Source of the DNA: Candidatus Hecatella orcuttiae | Lineage (GTDB): Archaea; Thermoproteota; Bathyarchaeia; Hecatellales; Hecatellaceae | Reading direction: 5' to 3' | NCBI GenBank assembly: GCA_002011035.2 | Contig: MTLY02000002.1 | Coordinates: 320,001-384,000 of the forward strand | Length of the DNA stretch: 64,000 nt | Shown here: piece by piece, positions 32,381 through 41,367 of the stretch | Layout: every line of letters begins with the position of its first letter | How positions within the stretch are numbered: position 1 is the stretch's first letter | The notes under the pieces: generated by a model | Databases searched by the model: none | Told to the model about the DNA's origin: nothing | Seen by the model: the letters and a program-made list of their open reading frames with translations, nothing else | Translations under genes and position numbers: made by a program

Positions 32381-33100
32381 TCAGAGAGGCTCTTCTTTAA
32401 CAGAAAACTCAAAACTTTTCCTGATCCTTTCACTTAAACTATAGCTGAAAGGTATTACATCAGTGTTTCTAACCACATAACCTTCTCTGTAAAGTTTTTT
32501 CATTAACCTCGCTGCGTGCTCCCGTGTTTTGCCGATGACCTCTCTAATTTCCGGAGCTGTTTTAGGGCCGCTGCGGTACAAAACTTTTAGGACAGCCATC
32601 TCTGTGGGGGTTAAGCGAGCGATGGAGACGTTTCCCCCCTCTAGCGTTGGACTCGGCTCCTCCAAACGTGGAGTCAAGCCTCGCATTTTTTTATCTTGGG
32701 CATTAACCTGCTGTTCAAGCTGGATACGCTTTTCATCTAGGGCAGATAGTTTATCGTTATGGACTTTCAATATTTTTGCGAATTTTGTCTGAGCGCGGAA
32801 GAGCTCTTTGATATTGGCGGTTAATGCTGATAACGTTTCCCTCTCAGCTTCATGGAAAGATTGAAGGCGGTTTAACTCTGAAAAGGAAGCTTCAATTCTG
32901 TGCAGAGCATAGGAGACACTCTCCTCAACTTTAGCCATCTTCTTACTTAACTGAACTATGGAAAGCTGAACCAAGTCGCTTAACTCCCCTAGAGAACTCT
33001 TTTTAGGCCTTCTGAATAGAAGCAGTGCGAGAAGAAATCCGAAGGCCGCTGTAAAACTCAACAAGCCTAGAAAAAACACTTCTCCGGAAAAAACCGTCAT
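32381..33100 (-). CDS. Membrane-anchored coiled-coil protein with C-terminal wHTH
   Basis: N-terminal TM (aa ~8-29) followed by RRPKK, ~100-aa heptad region, LTPTEMAVLKVL...TAPEIREVIGKTREHAARLMKKL..EGYV.R. Confidence 0.8.
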   Translation of the reverse strand: MTVFSGEVFFLGLLSFTAAFGFLLALLLFRRPKKSSLGELSDLVQLSIVQLSKKMAKVEESVSYALHRIEASFSELNRLQSFHEAERETLSALTANIKELFRAQTKFAKILKVHNDKLSALDEKRIQLEQQVNAQDKKMRGLTPRLEEPSPTLEGGNVSIARLTPTEMAVLKVLYRSGPKTAPEIREVIGKTREHAARLMKKLYREGYVVRNTDVIPFSYSLSERIRKSFEFSVKEEPL

Positions 33101-34132: not shown

Positions 34133-35428
34133 CTAAACAGAAATCTTGGCGGAAAAAGGCTTACCGCCAAAGGTTTTTTCACAGACTTCCGCAACTTTTT
34201 CACGGAATTGCGGCAAGGTATAGACTCTCACAATGTCCATAAACTGGGTTAGGGATGCTAAAAGAGGAGAAAGCTCCGTGGCTTTTTGAACAATCACACC
34301 CGCAGGGGTCTTCCGGTAGACGAGGATGTCTGACCGCTGCCTCTCCACTGGGTTGATGGGTACGGAAAGAACTTGAGGGACGTCGATGACGATGAAGTCC
34401 GGGTCAACTCCGGTTTTTTCCCCGATTTCAACCTCAACCTCGCGGCGGATGTTAGGTTTGTTGAGGAGGTTGGAAAAGAAGGTGTCTTTTCTGAATATGA
34501 TAAGCTCGTAGGTGCTCTTCAGAAGCTTTCTGCTGCGAACCCCCAAAATATATTGGTAGGCTTTCTGAAGCTTTTGGTCGACTTCCTTCTTGAGGGAGAG
34601 CAGTCCTTCTAGGACTTTACCGTCGTCCAATCGGAGAAACTCCTCCACGTCTTTGAAGGAGGCGAGGCCCAATTTTTCGCAGGCAAAATCCATGGCCCTT
34701 GCAATCATAACATTAGTCGCCCGCACTGTTCGGTGGAAGTAGACAGTGTTAAACATTTCCATCCTAGCGATGATGAAGGATTCCAAGACGCCGAAAGCCC
34801 CTGAACCGTCGGCCATCAGCCTCTTCTCTATCAACTCTAGGGATGAGATAAGCCGCTGGGCATCCACCTTTCCATATTCCACTCCAGCGAAGTAGGAGTC
34901 CCGAGCCAGATAGTCCATGATGTCTGCGGAAAAGTGGCCGGCGATAACCTGGTTCAGAAAAATTCTCTCCGTACGGTCTAAATGTCCTGTGGAAAGCTGA
35001 GCTATCTCTTTCTTGGAGAAGCCATGACTGGAAAGGATGTCCCCGATTTCGCTGCTCTCAATCACCCACTGGGTGAGGTCTTCGTGAGTTTGATGGCGGT
35101 GCTTTTCGAGGATTTCTTCGTAGACATGGGAGAAGGGGCCGTGGCCTACGTCATGAAGCAGCCCTGCTAGACGGACTTTTTGAATTTCCTCCTCCGAAAT
35201 GTAGCCCTTTTCGGCGAGATAGACTCCCAGCATGCCTGCCAAGTGCATAACCCCGAGGGAGTGGAGGAAACGGGTGTGAACGGCGCCAGGGTAGGTTAGC
35301 TCAGCTCCTGCCAGCTGCTTGATGTTCCTCAGCCTCTGGACGGGGGTGGAATCGATGAGCTTCTTCTCCACTTCTGTGAATCGGATGTAACCGTGGACAG
35401 GGTCCTTGATTTCTCCAACTCCTTTCAA
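34133..35428 (-). CDS. HD-domain phosphohydrolase (SAMHD1/dNTPase-like)
   Basis: DPVHG, QRLRNIKQL, HTRFLHSLG, LLHDVGHGPFSH, DYL.RD, VYFH. Confidence 0.9.
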   Translation of the reverse strand: MKGVGEIKDPVHGYIRFTEVEKKLIDSTPVQRLRNIKQLAGAELTYPGAVHTRFLHSLGVMHLAGMLGVYLAEKGYISEEEIQKVRLAGLLHDVGHGPFSHVYEEILEKHRHQTHEDLTQWVIESSEIGDILSSHGFSKKEIAQLSTGHLDRTERIFLNQVIAGHFSADIMDYLARDSYFAGVEYGKVDAQRLISSLELIEKRLMADGSGAFGVLESFIIARMEMFNTVYFHRTVRATNVMIARAMDFACEKLGLASFKDVEEFLRLDDGKVLEGLLSLKKEVDQKLQKAYQYILGVRSRKLLKSTYELIIFRKDTFFSNLLNKPNIRREVEVEIGEKTGVDPDFIVIDVPQVLSVPINPVERQRSDILVYRKTPAGVIVQKATELSPLLASLTQFMDIVRVYTLPQFREKVAEVCEKTFGGKPFSAKISV

Positions 35429-35446
35429 TGGAAGGATCAGTTTAAC

Positions 35447-35809
35447 TCACCTGAAGTGAATGCTGGTTTTCGAATTTCCCATGCTCTTAACGAGGTTCAT
35501 CAGCGTTCGACCTGCTAGGGGATCGTTTTCTTGGGGGATAAACACCGAAGCTAGGGCGGTCTTGCCCCATTTGGCTGCCAAATATTCCGCCAAAACCCTA
35601 GCGAGGTGGGAGTTCTTATAGCCGAGGAGAAGGCTTGAAGAATGAGGCGCGGAAGGAGGAATGGGCGGGGTTGCCACGGCTAGGGTGCCCAGTTTAGTTT
35701 TCTCCCCTTCGAAAAAGAAGCTTAGGATAGCGTTGTCCAGTTCGAAGATGTAGACTGAAAATTTTCTTCCTTCCAGCTCCACTGTTTTGCTTAGGGCTTG
35801 GGGGAACAT
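35447..35809 (-). CDS. Hypothetical protein, possibly proteasome assembly chaperone (PAC4-like)
   Basis: KLGTLAVATP...SSSLLLG...LAEYLA......ASV pattern; ATG 35809 with SD GGAGTG. Confidence 0.5.
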   Translation of the reverse strand: MFPQALSKTVELEGRKFSVYIFELDNAILSFFFEGEKTKLGTLAVATPPIPPSAPHSSSLLLGYKNSHLARVLAEYLAAKWGKTALASVFIPQENDPLAGRTLMNLVKSMGNSKTSIHFR

Positions 35810-35844
35810 CACTCCTTTAATCTCCAAGAAATCCTTAAAACATT

Positions 35845-36627
35845 GTGCTGGAAAAGGGAAATAACTTTTTGCGGAGGATGATAGATAAAGTTCAACCGCT
35901 TGAGGCGGCGACGACTTTGAAGCAGGATGCCAGCTGGATGGGTTCAATAATTTCCAGACTTAGGAAACACTTCGGAAAAATAATGTGGGCCAAATCGAAA
36001 GACTCTTTCGAGATTCTCGTGGCAACGATCCTAAGTCAAAACACCTCCGATGTCAACAGCCATCGCGCCTTCAGAGAGTTAAAAAAAGCCATGAAGCTTA
36101 CTCCGCAGGTTCTGGCTGAAAAGCCTCTGGGAGAGATCAAGCAGGCCATTCGAACAGCTGGGCTGGCTGAAATCAAAGCTAAAAGGTTGAAAGAGGCTTC
36201 CAAGTTCATCTTGAGGGAACTGGGAGGAAACCTGTCCAAAGTGTTCAACCTCCCTCCAGAAGAGAGTAGAAATTTTCTGCTGAGATTACCAGGTGTCGGA
36301 GATAAAACCGCCGACGTCATCTTAGTTTTCGCGGGGGGAATCCCCGTTGTTCCAGTGGATACGCATCTTTTCACCATAGGGAAGAGGCTGGGGCTTACAG
36401 CTTCCAGCCGCTACCAAGATGTCAGAGCAGCCTACGAGCGGCTTATCCCTCCAAAGGAAAGGGCGGAGGCCCATGTTCTCTTCATCGAGTTGGGGAAAAA
36501 AATCTGCACGGCTAGGAATCCTAAGCATGAAGCTTGCCCTATTCTAGACCTGTGTCCCACGGGGCTGAAATCTGTCTCCCAAGTGGATGATGAGGCTGAG
36601 AGGCGGCTTTCTGATACAGGCATGTGA
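35845..36627 (+). CDS. nth: Endonuclease III (HhH-GPD, 4Fe-4S)
   Basis: LVATILSQNTSD, LPGVGDKTAD, PVDTH, C-x6-H..C..C (one Cys replaced by His); real start probably near 35938. Confidence 0.88.
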   Translation: MLEKGNNFLRRMIDKVQPLEAATTLKQDASWMGSIISRLRKHFGKIMWAKSKDSFEILVATILSQNTSDVNSHRAFRELKKAMKLTPQVLAEKPLGEIKQAIRTAGLAEIKAKRLKEASKFILRELGGNLSKVFNLPPEESRNFLLRLPGVGDKTADVILVFAGGIPVVPVDTHLFTIGKRLGLTASSRYQDVRAAYERLIPPKERAEAHVLFIELGKKICTARNPKHEACPILDLCPTGLKSVSQVDDEAERRLSDTGM

Positions 36628-36777
36628 CTATTTCCCACCTCCGTGGGGGAAGCTTCAGCATTTTTTCGTCAATTTTTCCTCTCCCAGCAGGCTTTAATCC
36701 CGTTTCCAATCCTTCTCTGATGATTGTGAAATTTTATATGATGTCCTTCACGCATAAGACTTGAGGCTGCAAAAGAA

Positions 36778-37413
36778 TTGAAACCGCTTAAAAACTGGGA
36801 AAAGAAGGATTCTCTCTTCGGAAAAATTAGCGACCGCTTCCACCGCACTCCGCCTTTGAGGGATAAGGTTTTCAACTCCCTCTACAAACTTAACAGCATC
36901 CAAGCTAAACTGGAGCAGTTGACCAACAAACTGGAGCAGAAGGATCGGGAGCTCTTTGGCAAATGCGCTGAATCCATGGCCCGGGGAGATGAGGAGCGTT
37001 CGAAGATCTATGCCAACGAGTGCGCTCAGCTGAGGAAGATGGCTAAAACCGTTTTGGGAAGCCAGCTGGCCATCGAGCAGGCTGCTTTAAGGCTGGAGAC
37101 GGTGAAGGAATTCGGAGACGTGGCCAAGGAGATGATGCCTGTAGCTGGTGTAGTTCGGTCGTTGAAAGGGAAGCTGGTGGGAGTTATGCCTGAAGCCTCC
37201 TTGGAGCTCAACGAAATTGGAGAAACATTAAACGAGATCATGTTCGAGGCGGGGGAAGTCTCCGCGTCGGCTCCCAGCTTCCAAGCCTCAGGGGAAGAGG
37301 CTCAGAAAATCCTTCAGTCCGCTTCGGTTTTGGCTGAGCAGAAAATGAAAGAGAAATTCCCCAAACTTCCAGTGGGAGAATTTGCGGAGGAGCGTTCTCC
37401 CGACCTCGGCTAG
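36778..37413 (+). CDS. ESCRT-III / CdvB-family protein (Snf7 core)
   Basis: LFGKC....GD..RSKIYANE..QLRK, LRLETV.EFGD, GVMPE, EEAQKIL..A...AE, FPKLP (MIM2-like). Confidence 0.9.
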   Translation: MKPLKNWEKKDSLFGKISDRFHRTPPLRDKVFNSLYKLNSIQAKLEQLTNKLEQKDRELFGKCAESMARGDEERSKIYANECAQLRKMAKTVLGSQLAIEQAALRLETVKEFGDVAKEMMPVAGVVRSLKGKLVGVMPEASLELNEIGETLNEIMFEAGEVSASAPSFQASGEEAQKILQSASVLAEQKMKEKFPKLPVGEFAEERSPDLG

Positions 37414-37515
37414 TCTTCAAAACAGTCCGCAGCCTAGTCTTTCAAGACTTCCTTCAAGCTACTCCGCTTCCCCCCTCAACAGTGCGAGGTGGTTTAGGAT
37501 AGAAGGTTATTTCCG

Positions 37516-38493
37516 ATGGGAAGAGAGGAAAGACTTGAAGATGAAGTCCTAAGGATCTTTTTCGTCCTCTTGTCTGTGGTGAGTTGGTTTTTTATTCTCC
37601 AGTGGGCAGCGGAGCTTCTAGGCTGGCCCAGCCGGCCGGCGGGGTGGTCCTACCTCGCCGCCTTCTACGGGGCCTCTGCCGCCTATCTGGTGGGAAGGAC
37701 GAAAGGGCGGCTTAGAAAGGTCGTCTACGACTCCCCTTTTGCCGCTTATATCAACCTCCTGATAATCCTCGTCCCCCTATTCCTCATCTACCTAGCCTTG
37801 GCAAATCCCCCGCTGGAGGAGGCTCCTGGAAAAATCAGCCGACTGACGGCTTCAAGCCCCCTCACCTTGGCTTCAGGTTGGCTTTTCTCCTTCACCGCCT
37901 ACAGGTTTCTGGACAAGCTCTACGACAGGATTTTTGGGGTTTTCGAAAAAACCGGCCCCAGAGTCAGCTTCAAGACATCCGGCCCCATTCAAAGAGATGC
38001 GGAGGAGGTAGCGGGGAGGCTTGAGGTTGAGGCTGGAAAGCTGGCAGCCAAAGCCTCTGCTTGGGAGAAGCATGCCCACAGGTTGTACGATAAAGCCTTA
38101 GCAGCTCAGGTTTCAGGAAAAGCCGATAAAGCCAGCGCCTACCTTACAGCCTACTGGGAGGCGAAGAAGAACTCAGACCTGCTGGTGAAGGTGCAGGTGC
38201 AACTGGAAGGCTTAGTGGAGAGGCTTAAAACCCTCCACAGCTTCGCGGAAACCATGGCCGAGATGCCCTCCGCCTTCAAAACCATTTCAGAGCTTAAAGG
38301 GAGACTGAAGGGAGTTATTCCCGCTTTCTCCGGCGAACTGGAGAAGATAGGGCGAACGGTAGAAGAGCTTCTGGCCAAGACGCAGGCTCACGGCGGCAGC
38401 CTCCCAGAACAGCTCCAGGGAAAAGAGGCTCAAAAAATCCTCCTAGAAGCCGGCGGCGTAGCAGAGGCGAGGCTGAGGCATGGGAAAGACTAA
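37516..38493 (+). CDS. Transmembrane domain fused to a CdvB/ESCRT-III-like domain
   Basis: 3-4 hydrophobic segments in aa 12-130; C-terminal ~170 aa aligns collinearly with the neighbouring CdvB (LKGRLKGVIP vs LKGKLVGVMP; GKEAQKIL vs GEEAQKIL). Confidence 0.8.
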   Translation: MGREERLEDEVLRIFFVLLSVVSWFFILQWAAELLGWPSRPAGWSYLAAFYGASAAYLVGRTKGRLRKVVYDSPFAAYINLLIILVPLFLIYLALANPPLEEAPGKISRLTASSPLTLASGWLFSFTAYRFLDKLYDRIFGVFEKTGPRVSFKTSGPIQRDAEEVAGRLEVEAGKLAAKASAWEKHAHRLYDKALAAQVSGKADKASAYLTAYWEAKKNSDLLVKVQVQLEGLVERLKTLHSFAETMAEMPSAFKTISELKGRLKGVIPAFSGELEKIGRTVEELLAKTQAHGGSLPEQLQGKEAQKILLEAGGVAEARLRHGKD

Positions 38494-38549
38494 TCTGCTT
38501 TGGAACCTGATCCTTAGGTGAAGTTTCCCTGTCCCTCGGAGGGTTTTGG

Positions 38550-39188
38550 ATGCTGGTCAAGAGACTGACGGTAGGGCCGCTGATGGGAAACTGCTACATC
38601 GTAGGCTGCGAGGAGACGGCTAAGGCCGCGGTCATCGACCCGGGGGCAGAGCCTGAGCGAATCTTAGAGGCGTTGAAGAAAAGCCGTTTAAAGCCTGTTT
38701 ACATTGTCAACACCCACGGCCACCCGGATCATGTCTCCGCCAATGCTCCGGTGAAGAGGAGGACCAGCGCCCTGATTCTGATACACGAACTGGACGCCTC
38801 CCTGCTTTCTTCCCCCCGCCTAGACTCGGAGATAGAGCTCCTCCTCGATGTCGGGGAGAATTCCCCCCCGCCTGACAGGCTGTTGAAGGACGGGGAAACC
38901 ATCCGGGTGGGGAAGGTCACGTTTCAAGTCCTCCACACTCCCGGCCACACCCCCGGCAGCATCTGCCTCCTCGCCGAGGGCAGCCTCTTCACCGGAGACA
39001 CCCTCTTCGCCGGCAGCGTGGGTAGGACGGACCTCCCCGGCGGCTCCCCGGAGGCCTTGAGAAACTCGCTCCAGCGGAAGCTTCTGCCCTTGGACGACGG
39101 GTTAACCGTCTACCCTGGACACGGACCCCCCTCCACCTTAGGCTACGAGAAGAAGCACAATCTCTTCCTCAAGTCTTCTTTTCTCTGA
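38550..39188 (+). CDS. MBL-fold metallohydrolase (glyoxalase II-like)
   Basis: THGHPDH, TPGHTPG, TGDTLF, PGHG. Confidence 0.9.
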   Translation: MLVKRLTVGPLMGNCYIVGCEETAKAAVIDPGAEPERILEALKKSRLKPVYIVNTHGHPDHVSANAPVKRRTSALILIHELDASLLSSPRLDSEIELLLDVGENSPPPDRLLKDGETIRVGKVTFQVLHTPGHTPGSICLLAEGSLFTGDTLFAGSVGRTDLPGGSPEALRNSLQRKLLPLDDGLTVYPGHGPPSTLGYEKKHNLFLKSSFL

Positions 39189-39204
39189 GATTGAAGGCAC
39201 AGGG

Positions 39205-39819
39205 TTGGAGGCCGCTGGGTTGGTGAGGGTTCTGGGCGTGGAAGATGGCAGTTTTCCCAGCTGGCCGGCTGGGGTTAAGAAGGGAAAGGCTCTTCTCGCC
39301 GCGGTCACTCTCCGAGATTTCACCGTCGAAGACGTTGCCCTCGCTTGGGTGGCTGTAGACGGCTGGGATGCCACCGAGGCCGTCATCCAGATGGTGAAGC
39401 AGGGAGGGAAAAAACCAGACTTGGTGATGTTGGCCTCCCTTGCCTACGCCGGCTTCAACCTCGTCGACCCGGAGGAGGTTCACCGCCGCCTCCGCCTCCC
39501 CGTCCTCATTGTAAACCCCCAGAAACCCGACAGCTTAGCCGTGGAAGCCGCCCTTAAGAAGCATTTCCCCAACTGGAAGCAGAGACTCGCCATCTTGGAT
39601 AAGGCTAAAAAACCCTACAAACTCAGCTTGGAAGAAGGCGGAGAAGTGTTCTTCTACACCTACGGCCTAAGGGCCTTCGAAGCCCGAAAGCTCATCAAAA
39701 AACTGACAGTCTTCGGCCACCGCCCCGAACCCTTGAGGGTCGCCCGGCTGATAGCCCGAGGTCTCAGCCCTTCAAGGCGCGCCAAGCATCCGAGAAAAAT
39801 CCATCACGGTCAAGGCTAA
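39205..39819 (+). CDS. DUF99-family (endonuclease V-like) protein
   Basis: GVEDG, VDG.DAT, AGFNLVD, PEPLRVA. Confidence 0.8.
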   Translation: MEAAGLVRVLGVEDGSFPSWPAGVKKGKALLAAVTLRDFTVEDVALAWVAVDGWDATEAVIQMVKQGGKKPDLVMLASLAYAGFNLVDPEEVHRRLRLPVLIVNPQKPDSLAVEAALKKHFPNWKQRLAILDKAKKPYKLSLEEGGEVFFYTYGLRAFEARKLIKKLTVFGHRPEPLRVARLIARGLSPSRRAKHPRKIHHGQG

Positions 39820-41367
39820 GGTTTTCAGATTGACCACCGCTGCCACACCGGGGGTGGGCGTTAACCCCAGCCTCTGCTGGTAGAGGGTCTGCTTTTGCCA
39901 ACACCCGGAATTGATCAGCCTCACCCCCCGGTAGTAGGTTTGGTCGAACACATGAATGTGGCCTGCGTGGTAAACGTCGGGAACCCGGTCCACCACCATC
40001 CAGTCCCGGGTCTCCGGGGCTATGGGGGTCCTCTGCCCGTAGACAGGGCTCAAATGCCGACCCTTGAGAAGGCCCAGCATGGCCTTGGCGGGGTTCCGGT
40101 GGCTGACGTTGGGCATGGAGACTAGGACGTCCTCCAAGCTTCGCCCGTGGTGGAGGAGAAACTCAACTCCGTGAAGCCTCACCTGCGCCGGGTTTCCCAG
40201 GGAAACCAGCTGAGAGCCGCATTTCTCGTAGAGGGCTTCGGCGTATTTTTTAGAAAGAGCCGGCTGGGGTAAAGCCTTTCGAACGGCGTCGTGGTTTCCC
40301 GGAATGACAATGATGACAATGTGGTCTGGAACCTGTTCGAGCAGAGCGGCAGCTGCCTCGTATTGGCGGCAAACGTCCTGAATCTCCAACTCTTCTTCCT
40401 GCTGAGGGTAGACTCCTATCCCGTCGACCAAGTCTCCTGCCACCAGAAGATACTTGACCTTTCCGGCGAGCTCCCTCTCCCGGCGGCCTCCCCCGCCTCC
40501 CCTCAGCCACCCGAGAAAGGCTTGGAAAAGTTTCCCCTCAAAGACCTTGCTTCCCACGTGGAGGTCTGAAATCAGCACAGCGTTTACCTCCTCTGGGGAA
40601 AAGCCGGGTCTCCTCTGGGGAACATCCGGCAGGATTAGGTCTTCCGCCACAACCAAGCCGTTTCCAGTTTTAACGCCTACCACCCCTACAACTTGGTCTA
40701 AGAGCAGATTTCGAGCTTTGTCCACCAGCATGGGATTGGAGTCTTGGACGAGAACCTGAGCCTCTGCCTCCAAGTCATCCACTCTCAGAAAGAATCTTTT
40801 CCCACGGCTGACTTTTTCCGCCACCATGCCCACGAACTTAACCTTAGCTCCCGCCCTACCCTCCAAAGACTCCCTGATGGTGGCTGCGTCCCTCAAATCC
40901 AACCTTTGCCTCAGCAACCTTTTCAGCTGCTGAAAGCGGCTTCTGAAATATTCCATGAAGGCTTCCACGCTTCCCTTGGAAGCCAGCTGAAGAGTAGGGT
41001 CCATGACCACCTCCACCCTAGCTTCCACATCCTTGGCCTCCGGGCGGAAGATCCCTTTACCCATCTCCACAGGTTCAGCTTCCCGAAGCCCCTCTGTGGC
41101 AGCGCGCTTCTCCCTCTCCAGCGTGGAAGCCTCCTCCACCATGGCTTTGCTGACAAAGGGAAAAGAAGGAGGGGCCTCTGATAATTTCTTCAAAACTCTG
41201 TCGACAATCTGCTCCGGATCTTGACGTTGGGAGAGGGTTTGGAGGAGGCTGAAAGCTTCCGCCTGCATCTGGTAGCCGGCTTCGTGGACCTTTCGAAGAG
41301 CCCGCTTCACTTTTTCATCCGGCTGAGCTTCTGGGGTTTGACGGTAGCCTAAGGTTTCAGCCTCCAA
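39772..41367 (-). CDS. polD1: DNA polymerase D small subunit DP1
   Basis: YFRSRF, OB fold, ISDLHVGS, AGDLVDGIGVYP, PGNHD, HG, GHIH, NSGCWQ. Confidence 0.95.
   Translation of the reverse strand: MEAETLGYRQTPEAQPDEKVKRALRKVHEAGYQMQAEAFSLLQTLSQRQDPEQIVDRVLKKLSEAPPSFPFVSKAMVEEASTLEREKRAATEGLREAEPVEMGKGIFRPEAKDVEARVEVVMDPTLQLASKGSVEAFMEYFRSRFQQLKRLLRQRLDLRDAATIRESLEGRAGAKVKFVGMVAEKVSRGKRFFLRVDDLEAEAQVLVQDSNPMLVDKARNLLLDQVVGVVGVKTGNGLVVAEDLILPDVPQRRPGFSPEEVNAVLISDLHVGSKVFEGKLFQAFLGWLRGGGGGRRERELAGKVKYLLVAGDLVDGIGVYPQQEEELEIQDVCRQYEAAAALLEQVPDHIVIIVIPGNHDAVRKALPQPALSKKYAEALYEKCGSQLVSLGNPAQVRLHGVEFLLHHGRSLEDVLVSMPNVSHRNPAKAMLGLLKGRHLSPVYGQRTPIAPETRDWMVVDRVPDVYHAGHIHVFDQTYYRGVRLINSGCWQKQTLYQQRLGLTPTPGVAAVVNLKTLALTVMDFSRMLGAP

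Follow-up and report, generated by a model that had tools for sequence, protein, structure and literature searches.

A CdvB-family ESCRT-III core joined to a predicted four-helix membrane anchor in the genome of Candidatus Hecatella orcuttiae

Membrane attachment in described ESCRT-III systems

Proteins of the ESCRT-III superfamily have been studied as soluble subunits cycling on and off membranes, and how archaea without ESCRT-I and ESCRT-II start such polymers at the right place is understood only in part. Several systems exist in which an element fixed in the membrane initiates or anchors an ESCRT-III-type polymer: myristoylated Vps20/CHMP6, LEM2 with CHMP7, LiaI with LiaH, and PspB/C with PspA. 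The present work concerns a gene of Candidatus Hecatella orcuttiae (Bathyarchaeia), located at positions 37516–38493 of the forward strand in a 64,000-nucleotide stretch of contig MTLY02000002.1 (positions 320,001 to 384,000; hereafter, the window), in which a CdvB-family ESCRT-III core follows an N-terminal region with four predicted transmembrane (TM) helices. The architecture, i.e., that of an integral-membrane CdvB-family ESCRT-III protein, is regarded as very probable. In the initiator and anchor systems listed above a membrane-resident element sets the site of the polymer, which by analogy suggests a functional likeness; there attachment is provided by a lipid group or by a second protein, whereas here anchor and core form one polypeptide.

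In Sulfolobus, the proteins CdvB, CdvB1 and CdvB2 have short N-terminal amphipathic helices needed for liposome binding, for which CdvB2 requires its residues 1–27, comprising the helices amph1 and amph2; N-termini are directed toward the membrane and MIM2-bearing C-termini outward, and the switch of CdvB proteins from the closed to the open state is apparently triggered by membrane contact (2026 structures; PMC12818579). The fused protein is similar to Sulfolobus CdvB2, CdvB1 and CdvB (PDB 9s97-9s99, 9s9j, 9s9k) in the five-helix core, collinear over residues 152–321, and in the presence of Vps4 and CdvA in the genome. In contrast to the Sulfolobus proteins, which are soluble, with an amphipathic tip and a C-terminal MIM2, it has a predicted integral anchor of about 146 residues and no MIM2. 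The helices amph1 and amph2 of CdvB2 are absent from the fused protein, while an amphipathic juxtamembrane stretch, residues 127–146, remains.

Ravi et al. 2024 (PMC11237479) mention Snf7 homologs of bacteria that carry a TM segment, as well as an actinobacterial fusion of Snf7 to an RND transporter; the archaeal protein is like these in that an ESCRT-III-superfamily domain is covalently joined to predicted membrane-spanning segments. By description, the bacterial TM-Snf7 proteins of that source belong to operons with an AAA+ ATPase and an ABC transporter, whereas the archaeal gene has no such neighbours. Covalent membrane anchoring in the ESCRT-III superfamily is already known, and the archaeal CdvB case is a variant thereof; the first-pass annotation of the window, which treated members of the superfamily as always soluble, was too strong in this respect. 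In the literature searched, no archaeal CdvB anchored by membrane-spanning segments was found described; such proteins might be listed in the supplements to Makarova et al. 2024 and Ravi et al. 2024.

ESCRT-III core and predicted membrane anchor of the fused protein

The C-terminal part of the fused protein is collinear with the product of the gene directly upstream, a soluble CdvB paralog without hydrophobic segments: in the BLASTP alignment, residues 175–322 match residues 44–192 of the neighbour with 29% identity over 149 aa (E 2e-16), and all three motif pairs quoted earlier for the two proteins lie within this alignment. The identity to the soluble paralogs of the same genome is 25–30% over the core. 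In a single-sequence phmmer search against solved structures, residues 152–321 matched residues 27–197 of CdvB2 (9s97_A; E 2.3e-11), and a match to CdvB (9s9j_A) was also obtained (E 2.7e-4). The NCBIfam model of CdvB1/B2, NF041005, places residues 151–321 on positions 26–197 of 212 (E 9.2e-18). Profile–profile comparison by hhalign of six fused proteins with 60 soluble CdvB homologs gave a probability of 100 and E 9.4e-47 over 179 columns.

The AlphaFold2 model of the fused protein, built on an 81-row alignment, contains a core of five helices (residues 157–199, 203–238, 243–264, 269–292 and 303–323), with a predicted local distance difference test score (pLDDT) of 94–98 over most of it. Foldseek matched the model to CdvB2 filament chains and to CdvB of S. 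islandicus with a probability of 1.0 and TM-scores, normalized by target, of 0.59–0.73; for CdvB2 chain 9s98_C, E was 1.3e-5 at a probability of 1.0. The first-pass annotation had made its reading depend on an ESCRT-III fold in the C-terminal part, and both the structural and the profile comparison, as modelled, bear this out. The C-terminal winged helix of CdvB proper, the ESCRT-III protein that binds CdvA, is absent, since the chain stops two residues past alpha5. Sequence and model together indicate that residues 151–321 are a CdvB-family ESCRT-III core.

In the N-terminal region, a Kyte–Doolittle (KD) scan with a 19-residue window revealed two strong hydrophobic segments, approximately residues 10–35 and 73–100. 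Two weaker segments complete the set, and all four align in the seven homologous sequences. At only 28–35% identity to the window protein, the anchor has 16 positions invariant in 7/7 sequences, five of them within helix 4. The loop between TM2 and TM3 carries a charge of +3 to +5/-1 in 7/7 sequences; the stretch past TM4 is net positive in six of the seven and neutral (+2/-2) in P0006, and the TM3–TM4 loop is neutral or negative. Residues 1–146 are thus predicted to form four TM helices, and the earlier proposal of a multi-pass membrane fusion agrees with the four aligned hydrophobic helices (predicted), with the AlphaFold2 helices and with the conservation in orthologs. Because of the loop charges and the positive-inside rule, both termini would be cytoplasmic, as the ESCRT-III core requires.

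No Pfam or NCBIfam family matched the anchor (residues 1–146) in the fused proteins. Against the Atlas, no usable match was obtained by features, and structural TM-scores were at most 0.45. Modelled alone, the anchor reached a pLDDT of only 60.7, and among 48,161 solved chains the highest Z for this model was 7.6 (a viral coat protein and helices of a P-type ATPase), which is within the range of unrelated helical proteins.

The same anchor was also observed outside ESCRT-III proteins. P0006 (273 aa) contains it, at 34% identity over residues 12–167, but in place of an ESCRT-III core has a C-terminal domain rich in beta structure, with weak Ig-like matches (MG4, invasin D3); because of this second context the four-helix anchor looks like a portable module.

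The fused protein differs from the soluble paralogs of its genome, one of which it directly follows, in possessing hydrophobic segments and in lacking a tail of the FPKLP type. Its C-terminus, ...RLRHGKD, contains no MIM2-like motif and no phi-P-x-phi-P, and the soluble paralogs keep FPKLP, FPDLP or YPKLP tails; the loss of the tail here and its retention by the neighbour had been noted correctly at first inspection. At the MIM2 position, four of the six fused proteins have a tail (FPSIT, LPDIP, FPDFS, LPETP). The strict MIM2 core phi-P-x-phi-P (pattern from PMC8970359) is present in one of six fused proteins vs. 40 of 73 soluble homologs in the same alignment, and the relaxed pattern in 1/6 vs. 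56/73; the six fused proteins being related, these counts describe the trend of one lineage and do not amount to a statistical test. Since the MIM2 core is mostly lost, the fused subunit would suit an existence without extraction or recycling by Vps4. The suggestion of Vps4 independence made in the first-pass annotation holds for the window copy, which has no MIM2, and fails as a clean family trait, since 4/6 fused proteins keep a tail and 1/6 the strict core; accepted for the window copy only, it is plausible. The features of the locus are listed in Table 1.

Table 1. Features of the fused gene and its upstream neighbour (positions in the window)
Feature	Positions	Strand	Basis
Fused gene, CdvB-family ESCRT-III with predicted N-terminal four-helix membrane anchor	37516..38493	+	Open reading frame, same-architecture orthologs, identical contigs
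Predicted TM helix 1 (aa 14-36)	37555..37623	+	Mean KD 1.94; AlphaFold2 helix 7-35; S20, W24 invariant 7/7
Predicted TM helix 2 (aa 44-60), small-residue-rich	37645..37695	+	Mean KD 0.96 (orthologs 1.1-2.1); AlphaFold2 helix 39-61; S45, A49, G52, A53 invariant
Basic TM2-TM3 loop (aa 61-74), predicted cytoplasmic	37696..37737	+	Charge +5/-1; positive-inside rule
Predicted TM helix 3 (aa 75-97)	37738..37806	+	Mean KD 2.19; AlphaFold2 helix 76-96; Y78, L81, P87, Y92 invariant
Predicted TM helix 4 (aa 113-131), weakly hydrophobic, best conserved segment	37852..37908	+	Mean KD 0.53; P115, L118, W122, F124, F126 invariant 7/7; in AlphaFold2 helix 115-146
Juxtamembrane amphipathic extension of helix 4 (aa 127-146)	37894..37953	+	Hydrophobic moment up to 0.83, 11-residue windows; AlphaFold2 helix 115-146
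Low-confidence linker, anchor-core junction (aa 147-156)	37954..37983	+	pLDDT <50 at 147-152; run X7 contig bridges, 0 differences
ESCRT-III core alpha1-alpha5 (aa 157-323), no MIM2 tail behind	37984..38484	+	AlphaFold2, Foldseek, phmmer, NF041005
Upstream soluble CdvB paralog, 211 aa	36778..37413	+	NF041005 E 2.6e-60; pair with fused gene kept in G003, G001
MIM2 core FPKLP of soluble neighbour (aa 194-198)	37357..37371	+	Sequence and motif scan
Spacer between soluble paralog and fused gene, 102 bp	37414..37515		Sequence

Distribution, descent and genomic context of the fused gene

The window lies within contig 2 of a metagenome-assembled genome (MAG) of 1.75 Mb in three contigs (hereafter G000), 97% complete by marker genes and with an estimated contamination of 4.25%. 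The fused gene has an intact frame of 325 codons encoding 325 aa, and ATG 37516 is the first start codon past the in-frame TAG at 37495–37497. In three sequencing runs that are not flagged as possible sources, the contigs agree fully with the window wherever they cover it; among them, a 577-nt contig of run X7 (37777–38353) spans the anchor–core junction with 0 differences, and contigs from four runs revealed no variant. An assembly, frameshift or gene-calling artefact that joined an unrelated membrane gene to cdvB, a danger raised at the outset, finds nothing specific in its favour beyond the MAG origin with its estimated contamination; against it stand the bridged junction, the position of the start codon, the same fusion in G003 and G001, which belong to two further genera within this family of Bathyarchaeia, and six proteins with 27–58% mutual identity that share a single frame and the architecture. 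We consider such an artefact extremely improbable.

Among 41 related genomes, 35 of which contain ESCRT-III matches, full-length matches were found in G000, G003 and G001 only. The fused orthologs of G003 and G001 consist of 341 and 346 aa, respectively, and each is encoded directly downstream of a soluble paralog of 215–219 aa; the ortholog in G003 is named 'Snf7 family protein' by NCBI. A search with the anchor only in 401 genomes of the class returned the same three genomes (3/401); six more weak anchor matches in the class (E 9e-4 to 6e-3) were dismissed, containing 1–6 stop codons each. Of 1.84 billion representative proteins searched exhaustively, 113 matched at E up to 0.001; P0001–P0005 among them have the full fused architecture, with four further full-length fused clusters beyond the three genomes. 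The G001 protein aligns with P0004 over 339 aa without gaps, at 58% identity. Of two word-indexed homolog searches, one returned only the protein itself and the other only P0003, P0001 and two soluble CdvB proteins. The sequence record indicates that the fusion is genuine, conserved and rare.

The tree was built from 37 CdvB cores, namely those of the open reading frames of the fetched loci and of P0002, P0004, P0005 and P0007; P0006, P0085 and other representative matches were left out. In this tree the six fused proteins group together in a single clade (SH-aLRT 96) with long branches, and a single origin of the fusion, judged from these sequences, is not contradicted. The soluble neighbour of the fused gene belongs to a third CdvB paralog group (SH-aLRT 82).

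Two further proteins with unusual N-terminal regions were recorded among the representative matches. P0007 (370 aa), a second candidate combination of TM region and CdvB, was not relied on, being a singleton on a 2.5-kb contig. It has another hydrophobic N-terminal region and a CdvB core with an FPELP tail, and the N-terminal region is similar to the C-terminal portion of KaiC-like ATPases; P0117 and P0119 are grouped with P0007 in this respect. In G007 (L038:1805-2581), a gene for a KaiC-family ATPase precedes the third CdvB paralog by two genes. Either a genuine second fusion or an error of gene calling may account for P0007. P0085 (551 aa) combines an N-terminal region of about 370 residues, which contains TPR, with an ESCRT-III core scoring above the Pfam Snf7 cut-off (27.6 bits vs. 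27.3); its tail, LPDDL, contains proline and is located at the MIM2 position, but misfits the phi-P-x-phi-P core.

The canonical cdv locus of G000 is located on contig 3 and includes genes of two small proteins, a 237-aa CdvB (L002:1363-2076), a 294-aa CdvB with a C-terminal winged-helix region (L002:2145-3029; weak matches to GntR and other winged helices at residues 244–293), and Vps4 of the MIT-AAA type (L003:2358-3494). CdvA, with a PRC-barrel and the CdvA coiled coil, is encoded elsewhere in the genome (82.6 bits, above the Pfam cut-off). Within the family, it was found in 12 of 14 genomes, all three carriers of the fusion among them. Given this gene content, the proposal that the fused protein acts without CdvA is not supported.

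Two further observations were made. In both G000 (L002:6-548, L002:589-1170) and G001 (L042:4818-5453, L042:5443-6015), the canonical cdv genes are immediately preceded by genes of two proteins of about 180–210 aa; these are alike by eye only, match no Pfam or NCBIfam family, and could be parts of the Bathyarchaeial Cdv locus that have not yet been described. Two genes of the FtsZ/tubulin family (491365–491877 and 340669–341193) are also present on contig 3 of G000, beside the complete CdvA/CdvB/Vps4 set.

The fused gene is located in a different setting. In G005 and G006, the corresponding block consists of genes for an HD hydrolase, a PAC4-like protein, endonuclease III, CdvB, endonuclease dU and the small subunit of PolD; in the window, the fused gene and a gene of the metallo-beta-lactamase fold are inserted behind CdvB. 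The block (window 34133–41367, also L039 and L040) is conserved across genera, an unexpected position of a division-type gene among genes of DNA repair and replication. The 102-bp spacer upstream of the fused gene is poorly conserved relative to G003 and G001, with no promoter-like element shared across the three genomes, and a sigma-70/terminator scan, ill-suited to archaea, gave nothing on its forward strand, terminator-like sites included. Because the Cdv set is complete and the same block elsewhere lacks the fused gene, the latter is an accessory fourth CdvB paralog and not a stand-in for a missing component. The Cdv set of Bathyarchaeia has diversified past the textbook components; the fused gene itself is confined to a few uncultured lineages and evolves fast.

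Proposed role of the anchored subunit and further observations

The following function is proposed. Two helix hairpins joined by the basic cytoplasmic loop would fix the protein in the cell membrane, and the five-helix core would hang from the last helix via a linker of about 10 residues. The anchored subunit would always be located at the membrane, probably primed, and would serve as a fixed seed or anchor point for soluble CdvB paralogs, the first candidate partner being the product of the gene directly upstream. In this lineage the subunit would not be recycled by Vps4, since the MIM2 tail is gone. The protein would be accessory to a Cdv set that is already complete (CdvA, CdvB, winged-helix CdvB and Vps4) and would not take the place of CdvA. 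We give about even chances to this functional reading, according to which a resident membrane subunit co-assembles with soluble CdvB paralogs, as suggested by sequence and analogy.

The alignment of the fused protein to CdvB2 begins at CdvB2 residue 27, so the anchor would stand where the detachable membrane-binding tip would be, with normal orientation of the core; the alignment indicates that the anchor replaces the amphipathic tip. The soluble neighbour is the first candidate partner because the gene pair is conserved, and co-assembly with it would be expected. A seeding role is suggested by the analogy with Vps20/CHMP6, and by the opening of CdvB proteins on membrane contact (PMC12818579). 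The predicted complex of the ESCRT-III domain (residues 148–325) with the neighbour received a score of 0.07 (mark, 0.32) and speaks neither for nor against co-assembly. The fused protein would be a natural ESCRT-III that, by prediction, never leaves the membrane and is paired with a soluble paralog; it opens two questions, namely, whether tethering alone primes or opens a CdvB subunit, as suggested by the Sulfolobus structures, and what the fate of such a subunit is beyond Vps4 recycling.

Several observations weigh against the anchored subunit as a conserved, polymerising CdvB. The core gave no match to Pfam Snf7 (PF03357) at E up to 1, and with NF041005 it scored 64.4 bits vs. 189–207 bits for the three soluble paralogs of G000, missing the equivalog cut-off of 350 bits; since the soluble paralogs of G000 are also below both cut-offs, these are strict for the whole lineage. 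TM4 is weakly hydrophobic across the aligned sequences (mean KD 0.4–0.96), which makes the topology uncertain. The fused gene is present in 3 of 14 genomes of the family and 3 of 401 of the class, and the same syntenic block exists without it in G005 and G006, which makes it dispensable at the family level. The window copy is the most diverged member of the clade, with an end branch of 4.21 vs. a median of 0.32, and the placement of such long rows is unsure. In it, the most conserved CdvB motif, YANECAExRK, is replaced by YLTAYWEAKK, and the net charges of alpha1–alpha5 are 0/+1/0/-1/+1 vs. means of +3.4/+1.8/+0.1/-4.3/-1.6 in 73 soluble homologs. Because the charge polarity is flattened, the window copy may have lost canonical polymerisation.

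The polarity of basic alpha1 and acidic alpha4, gone in the window copy, is kept in the other fused proteins and in soluble homologs; the motif core ECxExR(K/R) is kept in four of the five other fused proteins (the exception is P0002), and basic alpha1 in all five. The losses in the window copy could reflect relaxed constraint, a changed mode of assembly, or loss of the autoinhibitory closure, an idea drawn from eukaryotic ESCRT-III, which would be superfluous in a protein that is never soluble.

Relaxed constraint in its extreme form would mean a decaying or neutrally drifting duplicate: the fusion would have arisen once and would now be in the process of loss, with the window copy functionless at present and on its way to a pseudogene. 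The longest branch of the tree, the patchy occurrence in the family, and the loss of MIM2 tail, conserved motif and charge polarity together are in line with such decay. The intact frame between real genes on either side, the 16 anchor residues invariant in seven sequences despite their low identity, the core modelled at high pLDDT, the gap-free ortholog pairs and the four runs without a variant argue for a maintained gene, and decay is judged quite improbable.

The flattened charges and the diverged polymer-face motif would also suit binding by one face only, as in a membrane-tethered cap, decoy or spatial limiter, which would bind the ends of soluble CdvB polymers or sequester monomers and in this way restrict growth. 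Such a protein would have the same architecture and the same conserved gene pair as a seed, and the loss of MIM2 would suit a subunit without turnover. The present data cannot separate restriction from seeding; the other fused proteins, judged by their motif and basic alpha1, look like ordinary polymerising ones, and the restricting role is considered improbable.

The proposed resident subunit can also be extended to a self-contained two-gene module, in which the embedded subunit, uncoupled from Vps4, would nucleate its dedicated upstream partner in parallel to the CdvA-templated machinery, the anchor being a portable 'ESCRT site' module; this extension is doubtful.

The same molecule could function outside cytokinesis, for instance in membrane maintenance or repair, as PspA and LiaH do with their membrane partners, or in vesicle budding, since the FtsZ pair and the full cdv locus could divide the cell. 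Both the tubulin/FtsZ-family genes and the canonical locus of CdvB, winged-helix CdvB and Vps4, situated on another contig, are compatible with this, as are the location of the fused gene outside the cdv locus, its accessory status in the family, and the integral-membrane partners of ESCRT-III-superfamily proteins in the stress systems LiaI–LiaH and PspBC–PspA. Its neighbours are genes of DNA repair and replication and of a hydrolase of the metallo-beta-lactamase fold, none of them related to stress or vesicles; moreover, this alternative concerns the process and not the molecular mechanism, and overlaps with the resident-subunit explanation. A role outside cytokinesis is assigned a low probability.

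Elsewhere in the window, on the reverse strand (32381–33100), a gene encodes a protein of 239 aa whose N-terminal segment is hydrophobic and which also has a long coiled coil and, at the C-terminus, a winged helix of the MarR/TrmB type; judging by its sequence, the protein looks like a membrane-anchored transcription regulator.

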